DNA from: Pholidichthys leucotaenia
Lineage: Eukaryota
Assembly: GCA_020510985.1 (NCBI GenBank)
Contig: CM035846.1
Location: forward strand, 202,907,081 to 202,971,080
Reading direction: 5' to 3'
DNA: 64,000 bases
The position numbers and the translations under genes were made by a program. Shown here piece by piece: positions 476-51,291 of the stretch. The notes below the pieces were generated by a model. That model saw only the letters and a program-made list of their open reading frames with translations. It ran no database searches and was not told the DNA's origin. Numbering within the stretch: the first letter of the stretch is position 1; each line of letters begins with the position of its first letter.

Positions 476-547
476 CGTACAGCATCAGTTTTTGGTGGGA
501 TGTTCAGGAGATCTTCCAAGTCTTCAGAGCCATCTGCCCATGCACAG
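476..547 (+). CDS. Exon (phase 0-0) of APOL-like gene; encodes RTASVFGGMFRRSSKSSEPSAHAQ
   Basis: AG acceptor at 474-475, GT donor at 548. Length is a multiple of 3. GGMF-basic motif shared with downstream exons. Confidence 0.5.
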
Positions 548-784
548 GTAATCATTTAGTCTGACTCTGTAGATTTTACTTATTTTCAAGCTAATTTTTT
601 TTTTTTTCTGTAGAGATTAGCTCCTGAGTTTAAGGAAACTTGAGACCCATAAGATTTTTTTTTTTTTAGTAATATCAAGATGCCTTCAGTTGTTCACAGT
701 TTTCCCAGTCAATCAATGGTGTAAATCAACAAGCAATACTTAACAAAATAATACTATCTTACTATCAAATTATTGGAGGTTTTA

Positions 785-1130
785 ACTACTGGGGGTGGCA
801 CTGGCTCAAGAGGAAGAGCAGGTGGTCCAATAACAAGAGGGTTGGTGGTTTGAATCCCGCTCTCCCCAGCCATCCTGCTGTTGTATCCCTGGGCAAAACA
901 TTTAACCCATCTTGCCTCTAGTGTCCATGACACTGGGTATAAATGTGTTGGTAGTGTTCAGATTGGCAGCCACGTTTCCCTCAGTCTGCCTTAGGGCAGC
1001 TGTGACTACAGTAGTAGCTTACCACTACCATTGTCTGTCTGTGGAGTGAATGAATAATGGACTCGTAAAGCGCTTTGAGTAACTTGAGAGGTGCTATATA
1101 AATGCAATCCGTTATTTCATCCACCTCAAT
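785..1130 (+). mobile_element. tRNA-derived SINE with GCGCTTTGAG...GCTATATAAATG tail motif
   Basis: tRNA-like head (GGTTTGAATCCC). Tail motif is shared with 50640-50770. Confidence 0.5.
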
Positions 1131-1282
1131 AGCAATGGTAAATTATTGTCTATCATTAAAATGTGGGATATTTTTGAAGTTTCTCCTCTTGGCTGCTCAG
1201 TAAATATAAATATAAAATTTGATGTAACAACAGTGAGTTTGATCAGACTGTGTTTATATTAATTTTAATGTTGACATTGCAG

Positions 1283-1345
1283 GATGGTTTATCAGTCAAT
1301 GGAGACCTGTCAAAGAGTAATGACAGTTTGTCAGACAACAATAAG
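1283..1345 (+). CDS. Exon, acidic/Ser module DGLSVNGDLSKSNDSLSDNNK
   Basis: cag|GAT acceptor and AAG|gtgagc donor. 63 nt, phase 0. Confidence 0.6.
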
Positions 1346-1491
1346 GTGAGCATCATGTGTCACTGCTCATGGTTGGGTTTGATGATCCTTGATAAATATT
1401 TAGGATAAAGTACTATGATACAAAGGAGGGAAAATCAACAGGAAATCCAGTTTTTTCTAGCATTAACACTAATATTTTATTAATATTTCAG

Positions 1492-1560
1492 GACAAAGGG
1501 GGAATGTTAAAAGCGATGTTTAAGAAGGCGACAAAATCTGGCCAAGAGGAGCAGACACAG
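1492..1560 (+). CDS. Exon, basic module DKGGMLKAMFKKATKSGQEEQTQ
   Basis: tttcag acceptor and CAG|gtttgt donor. 69 nt, phase 0. Confidence 0.6.
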
Positions 1561-1965
1561 GTTTGTATGGATAAGAAATTTGATTTCATATTGCAATACA
1601 TTTTTTTTTCTTTAAAAATAGTTCCACCAGCCAACGGAATTGGCCCACAACAGCTGGTACCACTTTCTTTAATGTGAGGATTTTGACTGTAGATTGACTT
1701 TTGTGCTTAGTCTTATATGACTGATCACATTTCACAGAAAAAAAAAAATAATTAACTGGCTTCACCTAACCCAGTTTTAACAATTTCCACTAAAATGAGT
1801 TGTGTTATGTGCAAATTGTTTTGACTGGATTTTAATATTCTTTGTTCTTATATATCTCATAAAAACTGAATGTACTGTAAGTCAGCCAGACGATGACAGA
1901 ATTACCCATTATATGGCGGAGAAAATAAGTATTTCACATTTTATTTTTTTTTTTTGTTACTTATT

Positions 1966-2262
1966 TGTACCCGTAGGTAGATTTGGTTTGCAGTCTGGTG
2001 ACAAGCCACCGGCTGCCGGTCGCTGCGTGCGCGAGCGCCCTAAACCTACATGTTTTTGGTATGCGGGAGGAAACCGGAGAAATCCCGGAGTAAACCCACG
2101 CAACACGGGGAGAACATGCAAACTCCACACAGCTCACTGTTGGTCGGGGGTTGGGATCGAACCCACGATCTCATGATCCCCGCGATCCCCCGGCCGAGGG
2201 TAAAACTGTGCTGCCACAGTGCTAAACCACTGCGCCACCGTGCAGCCATGTCAATATTATTC
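1966..2262 (-). mobile_element. SINE-A copy (tRNA-like head; family at 13036, 16467, 50441)
   Basis: Reverse complement of GGCAGCACGGTGGCGCAGTGGTTAGCACTG...GAGTTTGCATGTTCTCCCCGTG. Confidence 0.7.
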
Positions 2263-2291
2263 TCATTAAACATATTTCTGATGTAGCCACT

Positions 2292-48084: not shown

Positions 48085-48400
48085 ATCAGAGTTAAATGGT
48101 AAATGCCGTTCACTTATATAGTGCTTTTTTTCCCCTCATCCCTGGATGACCACAATGCTTTACAGATTTGGCTATCTACCCATTCACACACTGATGGCAG
48201 TGCAGCTGCCATGCAAGGCACTGGCCTGACACACCAGGAGCAGCTCAGGATTCAGTGTCTTGCTCAAGGACAGTTTAACATGCAGACCGCAGAGAAAGCA
48301 GGAGTCAAACCACTGACCTTCCAATCAGAGGTTGACCACATTCTACACCTGTGCCACAACTGCCCCGTAACAGAAAATCTGAGGGATAACCATTATCAAA
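48085..48400 (+). mobile_element. Conserved teleost SINE-like repeat (GGTAAATG...CATTCACACACTGATGGCAG...GCCATGCAAGGC...GTGTCTTGCTCAAGGACA...CGACCTTCCAATCAGAGG)
   Basis: Matches a widespread fish interspersed repeat recalled from other genomes. ORF 48103-48492 is incidental. Confidence 0.5.
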
Positions 48401-49379
48401 TGTTATATAACACAAAGCTTAGTCAAAGGAATATTAACACAGTTCTCACACAGGAGATGAGTTCTCACAGTGCAAAGATATTAATATATTAAAAAAGTAA
48501 AATGGCAACACATTGAAAAACCCTGAACTCAATAACAACTGTAAAAAATATTTCAGAAGCTAAAAATGTAATTTTTCTCCATTCCATCAAACAACTGTAG
48601 TTTTTTAAAATTTCTTCTTAAATCTGTTATACTTGCAGTGGTGACATAAATGTGTATAGAACATTTATAAGTACTAAAAGCAGCATGTTTAGTTTTAAAG
48701 TCGATCATTAGAATACTCATCAAAATTTAACACAAGGCAAACATATCATCTGAAAGGTTGCACTGCTCAATAATTTGATCAAATAATTCTCCACACAGCC
48801 AGGTTTGTCTGCTGCATGGCGAGTGTCCAGTGACTTGAAAATTTGGAAGACGAGCTCAAACTTGTGGAATATGATCATACTGTACAATCACGTCCAGACT
48901 GATGCCAATCTTTGCATTCAAAGGATTGTACCACCACTTTTCTGTCTCACGCACATCTGATAAATGAGAGCCCCTGTCTCCTTTAAAAGGGTACCCTTCC
49001 TGGTTTGAGTTAATGTCACAGTGATTTCTGTTTTGCTGTTGTAATTTATTTGTTTGCGTGATTTCTCTTGCTATTTTGATTTCAGTTTTGTTATTGTGAT
49101 CTATTTGCCACTGTGATTTGCTACTTGTGTGTTGTGCTTTTTGAATTTGATGTAGAGTTTCGTCAGGTATTTTTCCTCTTGAAGACCACCATTTGGCTTC
49201 TGTACACCACAGCAATGAGCAAAGTCAAGACTTTCAGTTTTAATTCAAAGGGTAACACAAAAGTGTGGCAATAAACATTCCAGAATTGCAAGTCTGTACT
49301 TCCAAATTGTTGATGCACACTTTTGTCAAACTACTTAAATTAAAGCAACAAGCCTTGACTTCACTCACAGCTTGAGTCT

Positions 49380-49990
49380 ACAATTTTAAATTCATTGTGG
49401 TGGTGTACAGAAGTCAGATCCAAATTAACAAATACAAGTACATACCTGTGCATGCCGGTAGAAACCAAGTATAAGCAAGTATTTCTGCATGCCCGTAGAA
49501 AGCGGGTATAAGCAAGGGTGTAAGCAAGCACATCAGCACTCGTTCAGTGATGCCGACCTTTGATCTTTGATGGTGTCATAGTGAGTCCTATGATCTTTGA
49601 TGATGTCATAGCGGGTCCTATGATCGAGAGTGATGCCTATATAGACATCATGTAGAGATCATAGGAACATCATAGGTGATCCTATGGTCTTTTAGCGAGT
49701 CCTATGATCGTGACACACTGACAGACACACACAGAGATTTCTTGAATTATATTGACTAGTGCATACCCGTGCATGCCCATAGAAACCCAAGTATTTCTGC
49801 GTGCCCGTAGAAAGCAGTTGCAAGCAAGCATTTCTGCATGCCCATTGAAAGAGTGGTCTGACCTCAAAATATGCCTATGATGGGAGGAGTTGTTCAAATG
49901 AGTTGTTCAGAACTCTTATATGGTCATGTGACATCATAGGAACACAGTGTGTGCCCGTGACGTGCACACACAGATTTCTTGAATTATGAT
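49380..49990. repeat. Satellite-like tandem repeats (GCATGCCCGTAGAAA units and CCTATGATC units)
   Basis: Tandem repetition visible. Shares the GTGACACACTGACAGACACACACAGAGATTTCTTGAATTAT motif with 45060-45120. Confidence 0.5.
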
Positions 49991-50076
49991 GATGATATCA
50001 CTATTTCGATATTTATGAACCAGACTTTACAGTATTAAACCTTAATTTAACACAGTGATATGTCTTTTACCTTCAG

Positions 50077-50127
50077 ACCAAAGTCAAGAAACGCAAGAAG
50101 TTTAATCCCTTCATGGCCCAGGTCAAG
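50077..50127 (+). CDS. Exon TKVKKRKKFNPFMAQVK (NPF module)
   Basis: cttcag acceptor and AAG|gtaaat donor. 51 nt. Confidence 0.6.
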
Positions 50128-50440
50128 GTAAATGTAAAAATCTTGTAGAATTCCTTTGAACAGTCTTGTTTTCTTCTATTCGGTACATTTTACCAGATCA
50201 AAAATTAGACTGAAGAAACCAGAATTATTGCAGGCATCATGCTCTGTCTTAAGATGCTGAGTCATTTATGCATTTTAAATAATCAGGACTTGTCAGTCGC
50301 TTGGTTTAGCTAATAAATACATATCTATGAGTACCCCCAACACAAAAAAGCTAGTGTTAAAGTTTTGTATAAGATGTCCACTGAATAGCTCGGTAGAAGT
50401 GTGTTGTTGTTGGGGATTATATATATTTCCAGCTATCTTT

Positions 50441-50768
50441 GGGCAGCACGGTGGTGCAGTGGTTAGCACTGTTGCCTTACAGCTAGAAGGTTCCTGGTTC
50501 GAATCCCCAAGGTGGCAGGGGTTGGAACCTTTCTGTATAGAGTTTGCATGTTCTCCCTGTGCTGCGTGGGTTTACTCCGGGGGCTCCGGTTTCCTCCCAC
50601 AATCCAAAGACATGCATGTTAGGCTAATTGGTTGTTCTAAATTGTCCCTAGATATCTGTTTCCTATAGGCCCTTAGAATAGAGGGTTAGTATTAGTGAAA
50701 GCGCTTTGAGTGGTCTCTGTGACTAGAAAAGCGCTATATAAGTGCAGGTTAGTTAGTTAGTATCTTCC
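50441..50768 (+). mobile_element. SINE-A copy with GCGCTTTGAG...GCGCTATATAAG tail
   Basis: GGGCAGCACGGTGGTGCAGTGGTTAGCACTG head. GAGTTTGCATGTTCTCCCTGTG core. Confidence 0.75.
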
Positions 50769-51255
50769 TACTCTGTACCCCTGCCAGAATGAGTATACAC
50801 TATATCAATAGGACTTTTATTTCTCTTTAGCCTTTCCCTCATATCATGATTATTATATCATATACCACAATGTGAGATATGTTGACACTGTAGGTAAATG
50901 ATGATCTAGCTGTCTTTAGGGTGATAAACTTACCCTCTAATTGTTTTTCTTATTAAAGTATCATGCTTGGCTGTAGCATCTGTAAACTGTACGAATGCAT
51001 TGTTCAGTAACCAATGCCTGCTCATTATTACACATGGAAAAATGTTAATGAAATGCTTGGCTCACACCCATTAAAACAGATGCACATCGTACTTGGAGAG
51101 GTTGGGGTGTGTGTGTGTGTTTTAATTTTATCTTTACAAAGAAAAAATGGCAACTTGTATAATAATTGTGGTGGTAGCAGTATTAGTAATTATGATCATT
51201 AAAGTGACTTCAGTAAAACTATTATTATTGTGATTACTGTGTGTTTTAATTTCAG

Positions 51256-51291
51256 GCCAAAGCTAACCAGCGACGTTCGGAAGCAGCAGAG
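51256..51291 (+). CDS. Exon AKANQRRSEAAE
   Basis: tttcag acceptor and GAG|gtagaa donor. 36 nt. Confidence 0.4.

Follow-up and report, generated by a model that had tools for sequence, protein, structure and literature searches.

The apol1 gene of Pholidichthys leucotaenia: a modular N-terminal extension with candidate EH- and SH3-domain ligands upstream of an ApoL domain

A 64,000-nucleotide stretch of DNA from the fish Pholidichthys leucotaenia (GenBank assembly GCA_020510985.1, contig CM035846.1, positions 202,907,081 to 202,971,080 of the forward strand), hereafter the window, raises the question of whether a long series of short exons encoding Asn-Pro-Phe (NPF) and PxxP motifs belongs to the same gene as an ApoL domain and, if so, what such a protein might do. 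An earlier, sequence-only reading had placed both parts between positions 476 and 51291 and proposed a novel teleost APOL paralog that links a membrane-active domain to the endocytic machinery. The window consists of eukaryotic, fish-like DNA with introns full of transposon remnants, and it contains teleost apol1 on the plus strand (476-59441), complete but for the first exon, which lies upstream of the window. The best reading of its product, and a fairly probable one judging from sequence, is a cytosolic tail of multiple Eps15 homology (EH) and Src homology 3 (SH3) domain ligands on a membrane-inserting ApoL domain.

Every NPF, PxxP and acidic Ser-cluster peptide quoted in the sequence-only reading was recovered by a six-frame scan of the window, on the plus strand and within short phase-0 exons with canonical splice sites. 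The NPF peptides are KLNPFRSANK (at 18126; exon 18096-18149), KLNPFHSAEK (27755; 27725-27778), NPFMPRTGGK (42006; 41979-42035), NPFMPRTAGK (45531; 45507-45560), NPFIPRTPGK (45950; 45926-45979), and NPFMAQVK (50104; 50077-50127), and the basic context claimed for them is real. The PxxP peptides are PVVPPRPR (28662; 28614-28691) and PPVVPPKPSK (29038; 28987-29064), while SGSSDSLS lies at 10951 (10924-10989). The motif exons are short open segments with a polypyrimidine tract and CAG acceptor, a GTRAG-type donor, and 0/0 phase throughout; most module exons measure 36-96 nt and are likewise phase 0/0. Joined with the remaining exons, they yield a 36-exon splice model of 3,204 nt and 1,067 codons that is 5'-partial and free of internal stops. 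Canonical AG/GT sites bound 35 of the 36 exons; the remaining one (17514-17588) requires a GC donor and is uncertain.

As an account of the motif part, the interval 476-51291 was accurately delimited: the acceptor of the first exon in the window falls exactly at position 476, and the donor of the 36-nt exon AKANQRRSEAAE exactly at position 51291. The ApoL domain had been misplaced, as none was found within 476-51291; it occupies the terminal exon at 58469-59441 (Pfam PF05461), preceded by three linker exons (55824-55901, 55999-56038, and 57601-57652). The first exon of the orthologs (MDRYxxLDLECDGG) was sought in all frames of the window and not found, and the gene is therefore taken to be cut at its 5' end by the window edge. 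The exons and the candidate ligand peptides are as follows:

476-547, +, GMF-type basic-hydrophobic exon RTASVFGGMFRRSSKSSEPSAHAQ; AG/GT, phase 0; tblastn to Betta and Channa long isoforms
1283-1345, +, acidic Ser-cluster exon DGLSVNGDLSKSNDSLSDNNK; AG/GT, phase 0; ortholog match
1492-1560, +, GMF-type exon DKGGMLKAMFKKATKSGQEEQTQ; splice model, ortholog match
3725-3793, +, Ser-cluster exon ATLSSQNPELSVSSDSLTDKTSK; splice model, ortholog match
3892-3963, +, GMF-type exon DKSGMFSGILKRSPKPGHTRRSSQ; splice model, ortholog match
4090-4146, +, Ser-cluster exon DLLEVPVSNDSLSEKANTK; splice model, ortholog tblastn
10387-10446, +, GMF-type exon ESGGILSGMFKKSPKRTKSQ; splice model, ortholog match
10537-10605, +, Ser-cluster exon DDLSEPSEVSGSSDNLSVNSHTK; splice model, ortholog match
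10773-10835, +, GMF-type exon ETGGMFSGIFKKPLGSQTHSQ; splice model, ortholog match
10924-10989, +, Ser-cluster exon EDLLAPTELSGSSDSLSENHPK, holding SGSSDSLS; splice model, motif scan
11071-11124, +, GMF-type exon EKGGMFSGMFRKKGAKSQ; splice model, ortholog match
17203-17268, +, degenerate Ser-cluster exon NDLSVDDEVFAGGDAVHEKSSK; splice model, ortholog tblastn
17514-17588, +, probable exon DKEKREHPGESNEDQSTAEKPKTKQ, uncertain; ortholog match E=0.002-0.004, GC donor CAG/GCTGGT
17762-17809, +, degenerate NPF-type exon NGFNAAMKSTFYTNKP, with STF replacing NPF; splice model, ortholog tblastn
17958-18011, +, exon KSENEEMENGDDKPNHKQ with in-frame ATG; splice model
18096-18149, +, NPF1 exon GKLSGMMTKLNPFRSANK; splice model, ortholog tblastn; several ortholog isoforms begin at its Met (MTKLNPF...)
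18285-18353, +, acidic Ser-rich spacer exon QEKHSDSDEESAVSSEKSSGNKQ; splice model, matches the transcript-derived protein P0062
27725-27778, +, NPF2 exon NFMAETLSKLNPFHSAEK; splice model, motif scan
28341-28406, +, exon KDTEHTETQKENETQVEEKPEL; splice model, ortholog tblastn
28614-28691, +, PxxP1 exon VKSNVSHHGKKERSETPVVPPRPRAE, class II PxxPxR; splice model, ortholog tblastn, sub-threshold p47_phox_C
28778-28837, +, exon EMRGMSTYDKVKPRSAENNK; splice model, ortholog tblastn
28987-29064, +, PxxP2 exon DNTDMTSRERKGKPTEPPVVPPKPSK, class II PxxPxK; splice model, ortholog tblastn
29174-29224, +, exon ELNRPGKHDQQKQNNQQ; splice model, ortholog tblastn
33699-33782, +, acidic spacer exon NQSGDDGVEEESAATKAGDEMKLLESKT; splice model, ortholog tblastn
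41979-42035, +, NPF3 exon TKVKKQKHINPFMPRTGGK, polybasic; splice model, motif scan
45331-45402, +, acidic spacer exon GPSDDEQPLATEEKDDEGQDKKEK; splice model, ortholog tblastn
45507-45560, +, NPF4 exon TKEKKHKHNPFMPRTAGK, polybasic; splice model, motif scan
45681-45770, +, acidic spacer exon APFDGEDQKEEEESSAMKEKDDEAKDKHEK; splice model, ortholog tblastn
45926-45979, +, NPF5 exon TKVKKQKRNPFIPRTPGK, polybasic; splice model, motif scan
46088-46183, +, acidic spacer exon APSDDEGLKEEGDSSATEEKKDDEEAKDKKEK; splice model, ortholog tblastn
50077-50127, +, NPF6 exon TKVKKRKKFNPFMAQVK, polybasic; orthologous to the universally conserved module adjoining the linker
51256-51291, +, the 36-nt exon; orthologs carry AKAVQRHAGDGAADNTAE here
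55824-55901, +, linker exon 1 NEGPKRTVFDQLEDLRIDPSGEENYQ; tblastn E ~1e-8, helix in the AlphaFold2 model of an ortholog
55999-56038, +, linker exon 2 DVDGLMEWWKTVE, ending in phase 1; M, W, and W invariant in 34 species
57601-57652, +, linker exon 3 (P)WEDLPSTDDMTEKEEA(K); splice model, ortholog tblastn
58469-59441, +, terminal exon with ApoL domain and hydrophobic hairpin, acidic tail, and stop codon; Pfam PF05461, 75-84% identity to teleost 'apolipoprotein L1'
Candidate EH-ligand peptides of the NPF modules: TKLNPFRSANK, KVKKQKHINPFMPRTGGK
Candidate SH3-ligand peptides of the PxxP modules: SETPVVPPRPRAE, TEPPVVPPKPSK

The N-terminal 745-750 or so residues of the encoded protein thus form a modular array without a recognisable domain. 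Six basic-hydrophobic GGMFxGMFKK modules alternate with acidic SxSSDSLS modules, followed by two KLNPF[RH]SA modules, two class II SH3-ligand modules (ETPVVPPRPR and EPPVVPPKPSK), four polybasic K-x-K-K-x-K-x-x-NPF-[MI]-[PA] modules alternating with acidic SDDEGLKEE spacers, and a conserved helical linker (LFDQLEDLRIDP ... LMEWWKTVEPWEDLP) leading into the C-terminal ApoL domain with its hydrophobic hairpin. The GGMFxGMFKK and G-x-L-S-G-M-M-x-K-L-NPF modules can be aligned to a common G-x-x-S-G-x-x-x-K-x-x-P-F-x-S pattern, and pike and characin orthologs possess GMF/NPF hybrid modules such as GGMLGKIFWNPF. The GMF and KLNPF modules may therefore be one exon family in which most copies have lost NPF, a weakly supported notion drawn from short peptides. 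As for the uncertain exon at 17514-17588, which is conserved in orthologs, either it is spliced through a GC-AG intron or the exon has been lost in the window lineage.

The ApoL exon matches Pfam PF05461 with E=3.3e-37 and 129 bits (cut-off 25.9 bits) over profile positions 43-297 of 298. It includes a hydrophobic helical hairpin (GIALAPVTMGTSLIVTAVGLGVATAGGL) with predicted membrane insertion, and the orthologs, in a 34-species alignment, keep many residues of the equivalent segment without change. In an AlphaFold2 model of a 591-residue ortholog built on that alignment, the ApoL region is mostly helical, with a predicted local distance difference test (pLDDT) score below 50 in the hairpin segment (residues ~326-389). 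A PDB sequence search identified no homolog of the ApoL exon (58470-59438); marginal matches (E ~0.009) to the ClyA-family alpha-pore-forming toxin components NheL1 (6tao) and MakE (6w08) covered the hydrophobic hairpin. The exon also carries conservative substitutions at invariant or nearly invariant columns of the 34 species (MRFVQ, KSDFA, NNTLDRKK, and KKYNNNDDLPRL), most of them shared by no database match, suggesting a lineage that is either unrepresented in the databases or evolving somewhat faster.

That repeat exons and ApoL exon belong to a single gene, as the sequence-only reading had supposed, is well supported at the level of sequence by frame and phase continuity, by colinear alignment with orthologs over about 1,000 residues, and by spliced transcripts of other fishes. 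Among the 120 matches listed, teleost 'apolipoprotein L1' proteins are 75-84% identical to the ApoL exon at 80-100% coverage, and the apol1 lineages sampled comprise a mormyrid, Albula, Denticeps, cyprinids, characins, salmonids, pike, and percomorphs. Annotated ortholog N-termini bear the same modules, which tblastn maps exon by exon and in the same order onto the window, and both the linker (LFDQLED ... LMEWWxTVExWEDxP ... MTEKEEAK) and the colinear N-terminal modules are common to the window and to teleost apol1. An exhaustive HMMER search with a full-length ortholog as query found full-length orthologs of 774-1,161 residues with an identical module order: MDRYDNLDLECEGG, (GGMFxGMFKK / LSxSSDSLS)n, KLNPFRSA, PxxPxR, polybasic NPF, linker, and ApoL. 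The window model aligns with two of these (P0125 and P0123) as single high-scoring segment pairs of about 1,000 residues each. At the transcript level, one Logan contig from another fish (L001; 3,732 nt) encodes KLNPF, two PxxP, and polybasic NPF modules, the linker, and ApoL in one 587-residue open reading frame (ORF), with GMF and SDSLS modules in an upstream ORF of the same mRNA, and a second contig (L002; 1,936 nt), also from another fish, encodes two polybasic NPF modules and ApoL in a single 533-residue ORF.

The identity of the gene as teleost apol1 with a motif-rich extension is accordingly hardly open to doubt, and the proposal of a novel paralog was rejected, since orthologs with the same extension occur throughout the teleosts. 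Teleost Apol1, known from the zebrafish protein NP_001025309 and from XP long isoforms, is the ortholog, and it shares the LMEWWxTVExWED linker and, in its long form, the module order. Nor is the gene new: RefSeq and UniProt already hold long forms with this extension from many species, under uninformative names such as 'titin homolog' (for example, XP_053740240.1, 'titin homolog isoform X3', of Synchiropus splendidus), so that the view that no such extension is known was not upheld. Full-text literature searches returned no paper in which APOL is linked with NPF or with EH domains, nor any that mentions apold1a or apold1b. Within the literature searched, neither the architecture nor its motif content appears to have been described, and both differ from those of every characterised APOL protein.

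Within the extension, conservation is concentrated on the NPF motif. The polybasic module has the consensus K-x-K-K-[PK]-K-x-x-N-P-F-[ML]-P-[QRH], and N-P-F is invariant in all 57 distinct polybasic ortholog modules, followed at +1 by M (53) or L (4) and at +2 by P in 54. Upstream of the LMEWW linker, the 34-species alignment has no invariant columns other than N214, P215, and F216, and NPF is present in 60 of the 64 ortholog models whose N-terminus reaches 140 residues or more. Across 13 orthologs, NPF was observed 38 times against 0.5 expected and the scrambled tripeptides FPN, PNF, and NFP not at all. The window itself has six NPFs against 0.057 expected from composition, a number reached in none of 100,000 shuffles (650-residue N-terminal region of a first, 31-exon model), although these copies are not statistically independent, having arisen by exon duplication. 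NPF3, NPF4, and NPF5 share near-identical intron sequence upstream of the acceptor (TTTTTTGTCTTTACAG/ACTAAG), which marks them as tandem exon duplicates, and NPF6 is more diverged. The six copies use differing synonymous codons (CCA/CCC/CCG; TTT/TTC) while the tripeptide is kept. With six copies, the most seen here, against one to five in the orthologs, the window gene owes its extra NPFs to lineage-specific tandem exon duplication.

The PxxP motifs are likewise retained, orthologs keeping PxxPx[R/K] as PAVPPRP, PVVPARP, PTVPARP, or PIIPPRP where the window has PVVPPR and PVVPPK. A Pfam search of the 650-residue extension of the first model found no domain, only a sub-threshold match to p47_phox_C (PF08944; cut-off 27 bits), to which the window module scores 17.2 bits (E=0.0036) and a salmonid module 24.8 bits (E=1.4e-5). 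The AlphaFold2 model of the 591-residue ortholog has pLDDT below 50 at residues 1-209 and 216-247, with slightly higher values at 210-215, and no secondary structure before residue 229, helices beginning at LFDRLEDL and LMEWWNTVE and continuing through the ApoL domain. The N-terminal extension is thus predicted, by way of the ortholog, to be disordered.

What might such a tail do? The NPF and PxxP motifs had been put forward as EH and SH3 ligands, and this stands as a hypothesis only, favoured by NPF invariance, predicted disorder, multivalency, and the fit of the PxxP motifs to class II; a docking function along these lines is judged slightly the better bet. Full-length orthologs begin with an acidic MDRYDNLDLECDGG rather than a signal peptide, suggesting that the tail is cytosolic, and the ApoL hairpin would insert into the membrane from the cytosolic side. 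The disordered tail could then serve as a multivalent docking platform that gains avidity by combining NPF and PxxP motifs, the former recruiting N-terminal-type EH proteins (EPS15, EPS15R, intersectin, REPS, or gamma-synergin) and the latter SH3 proteins. Intersectin has both EH and SH3 domains and could use both kinds of module. In this way, the tail might sort the ApoL protein into clathrin-dependent traffic, or else concentrate endocytic scaffolds at ApoL-marked membrane. Splicing of the symmetric cassette exons would tune valency, a short ApoL-only isoform such as the published zebrafish form would lack endocytic coupling, and further, phosphorylation-sensitive contacts with the membrane may come from the way in which basic-hydrophobic modules alternate with acidic Ser-rich ones.

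The flanks and number of the NPFs bear on the choice of partner. In the window, the motifs read NPFR, NPFH, NPFMPR, NPFIPR, and NPFMAQ, followed by basic or neutral residues, and six copies with R, H, M, or I at +1 fit EPS15-, EPS15R-, or intersectin-type readers. The first and third EH domains of EPS15R favour NPFR, and an Arg after NPF contacts the second EH domain of EPS15 (PMC6524969). A single NPF binds weakly, with a dissociation constant above 100 uM, and apparent affinity rises with NPF number (PMC6524969); EPS15 binding requires multivalent NPF even for suboptimal motifs (PMC12808100). Partners of the EHD1-4 type were rejected: the C-terminal EH domains of EHD proteins prefer acidic residues after NPF (PMC13282721), and an acidic cluster directly after the motif is absent from all six window copies.

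Several points weigh against the docking proposal. Short and common, NPF occurs 509 times in the disordered regions of 446 human proteins, and readers other than EH domains exist, POLE2 being one (PMC12808100). The enrichment statistics count relatives and internal repeats and so overstate independence. The membrane topology given to the ApoL domain is an assumption, exon inclusion in the window species is read from transcripts of other fishes, many annotated isoforms skip modules, and a curated zebrafish protein has none of them. Finally, the strict conservation of M/L at +1, P at +2, and the polybasic run exceeds known EH requirements and may reflect a different or additional reader, or a lipid-binding role.

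This last point is the starting place of the strongest alternative, which is nevertheless unlikely: that the K-x-K-K-x-K-x-x-NPF-M-P module is functional but serves a non-EH reader of the POLE2 or Sec24 A-site type, or acts with the GMFKK repeats as a phospho-switched element that binds lipid or resembles a nuclear localisation signal. Besides conservation reaching beyond the EH core motif, there is the binding of NPF by POLE2, which depends on the flanks, an Arg ahead of the motif included (PMC12808100), and there is the GMFxGMFKK / SxSSDSLS alternation, which, judging from module order, resembles an electrostatic switch. However, a nuclear polymerase subunit would be an improbable partner of an ApoL protein anchored in a membrane; the NPFR-type flanks, together with the high valency, suit EPS15 and EPS15R (PMC6524969); and PxxP motifs co-occur, with paralogs bearing arrays of DPF, D[IL]F, and NPF such as typify endocytic accessory proteins.

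Somewhat less likely still, the modules could be real apol1 exons of marginal importance, mostly skipped in favour of a dominant short ApoL-only product that docks nothing. All upstream exons are phase 0/0 and so freely skippable, short models or models without some of the modules are frequent in the databases, and NP_001025309, the curated zebrafish protein, begins at MEWLDD, downstream of the NPF module. Against this, NPF is invariant in all sampled teleost lineages within an otherwise unalignable region, the exons retain their splice sites and open frames, the modules have grown in number instead of decaying, and assembled transcripts include them. Least of all, and very improbable, two adjacent genes have been read together in the window species: a 4.5-kb intron (51292-55823) with Tc1/mariner transposase-like open frames (~52.5-53.3 kb) does split the last module exon from the linker exons, and the transcripts behind the junctions come from other fishes, but two separate genes were rejected because phase and frame are unbroken through every junction, the same junctions occur in spliced transcripts and RefSeq models of many fishes, and a separate ApoL gene would have no start-codon exon or alternative frame, barring the internal Met of the short isoform.

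A multivalent EH/SH3-ligand tail on an ApoL domain, the preferred reading, has partial counterparts among known proteins. Human APOL1-6 and APOLD1 share with the window gene the ApoL domain (PF05461) and the hydrophobic hairpin, and a C-terminal GAKSE...A..L helix region is common to human APOLs and the window ApoL domain. Human APOL proteins are not known to have a long, disordered NPF/PxxP N-terminus. Human APOL1 has a signal peptide; nothing of the kind is seen in the ortholog N-termini (MDRYDNLDLECDGG) from which this was judged, the start of the window gene being missing. Zebrafish Apol1 also lacks a secretory domain (PMC4492502). A documented functional precedent is SCAMP1, which is embedded in the membrane and uses the NPF repeats of its cytosolic N-terminus to bind an EH domain and so recruit EH proteins, with affinity gained by linking NPFs (PMC8927860). 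SCAMP1 is a non-homologous tetraspan with three NPFs in acidic or neutral contexts, whereas the window protein has an ApoL domain, six NPFs in basic contexts, and PxxP modules; no Pfam SCAMP domain was matched on either the extension or the ApoL exon, and the likeness is functional only. HRB/AGFG1, DAB2, epsin, synaptojanin-170, and stonin 2 also carry multiple NPFs in a disordered region, often with other endocytic motifs, and the EPS15 binding of such soluble proteins scales with NPF count (PMC6524969; PMC12808100). They attach to membrane or cargo via ENTH, PTB, or ArfGAP domains, whereas the window protein has as its folded part an ApoL domain, predicted to insert into the membrane and perhaps able to form a channel. 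Finally, the resemblance to the C-terminal proline-rich region of p47phox (PF08944) is confined to a short motif of ~13 residues with the core P[AV]VPPRP, there being no homology beyond it and no NADPH-oxidase context.

The same theme extends to other fish ApoL proteins. The best 150 relatives are almost all from ray-finned fishes, with one weak mammalian match. Paralogs, including apold1b and LOC proteins of Solea, Thalassophryne, Arapaima, and Anguilla, keep the [ML]xWW linker and ApoL domain and have long, low-complexity, motif-bearing N-termini of their own; five of them (P0146, P0142, P0135, P0179, and P0151; apold1b and LOC genes of 700-1,700 residues) have N-terminal arrays of NPF, DPF, D[IL]FQ, PxxP, or GMF/SDSLS repeats, in each case upstream of the [ML]xWW linker. 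They differ from the window gene in that ApoL identity is only 40-55%, repeat types and copy numbers vary, and some have long C-terminal tails and no NPF. The apold1b protein (P0146) possesses four G-x-x-x-G-M-x-x-K-[VI]-NPF-[RK]-S modules, one SPF variant, and PPVPPRPTPQELE, module types that it shares with the window gene; a second paralog group has dozens of D[IL]FQ or DPF-like repeats together with NPFs, and a third has more than 11 GMF/SDSLS pairs and no NPF. In 80 proteins below 50% identity, observed versus expected counts were 50 versus 6.2 for NPF, 46 versus 10 for DPF, 118 versus 11.7 for D[IL]F, and 139 versus 48 for PxxPx[RK], with the scrambled FPN, PNF, and NFP at or below expectation; these counts take in relatives and internal repeats and hence describe a pattern, not a set of independent events. 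Endocytic-type motifs look like a trait of the whole fish ApoL family. A pre-teleost origin of the tail was considered and is unsupported, since gar and bichir relatives have linker and ApoL only; the motif-rich tail seems to have been elaborated within teleosts, provided that those gene models are complete. It is tempting to suggest, if only tentatively, that teleost ApoL proteins (apol1, apold1b, and the LOC genes) constitute an unrecognised class of membrane-inserting endocytic accessory proteins, in which the ApoL domain would be the membrane anchor or channel and a disordered tail of NPF, PxxP, DPF, and D[IL]F arrays, tunable by splicing, would connect it to the EPS15, intersectin, AP-2, and clathrin network. 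With such a class, an APOL-family protein would for the first time be tied to endocytosis by a direct molecular connection, and zebrafish apol1 studies would have covered only the tail-less form.

The zebrafish apol1 of Anderson et al. was modelled from a 2.6-kb locus (PMC4492502). The reverse complement of the morpholino used (...ACCCTCATGGAATGGCTGGACGACT) encodes TLMEWLDD and matches the Danio ortholog P0095, a long form in which TLMEWLDD is internal (...KKTLMEWLDDFRLSE...) and downstream of the NPF module, so that the published zebrafish protein is the tail-less short form. A translation-blocking morpholino directed at the short-isoform ATG targets internal coding sequence in the long isoforms and may not block them. 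The matter is of consequence, as zebrafish apol1 serves as a model for APOL1 kidney disease. If apol1 does encode a protein of more than 1,000 residues with a conserved EH/SH3-ligand tail, it would offer a concrete link between the ApoL membrane domain and clathrin-dependent trafficking, zebrafish experiments built on the short model, including rescue experiments and those with the translation-blocking morpholino, would need to be re-read, and the gene would exemplify a disordered motif array built by symmetric-exon duplication, with valency adjustable by splicing.

Transposable elements are prominent between and beyond these exons. An intact 897-residue ORF of a long interspersed nuclear element, with endonuclease and RVT_1 reverse transcriptase domains (19844-22534, plus strand, the same orientation as apol1), sits in the 9.4-kb intron between the spacer exon at 18285-18353 and NPF2. 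Just upstream of the NPF2 exon, positions 26001-28000 have a GC skew of +0.33 over a degraded reverse transcriptase-like element (25.4-27.1 kb), and a second reverse transcriptase ORF of 526 residues (35191-36768) lies in the intron before NPF3. The intron at 4147-10386 holds two near-identical sets of open frames about 1.6 kb apart (6117-6944 and 7726-8553), whose minus-strand frames, on inspection, are similar to Tc1/mariner transposase; the pair has the look of a transposon remnant duplicated in tandem. Downstream of the apol1 stop codon, retroelement-like open frames run on the plus strand from 60782 to 64000 (GC content 0.49-0.53), the first ORF (60782-61624) containing the Pfam domain DUF7041 and the later frames appearing by eye to be reverse transcriptase- or integrase-like.

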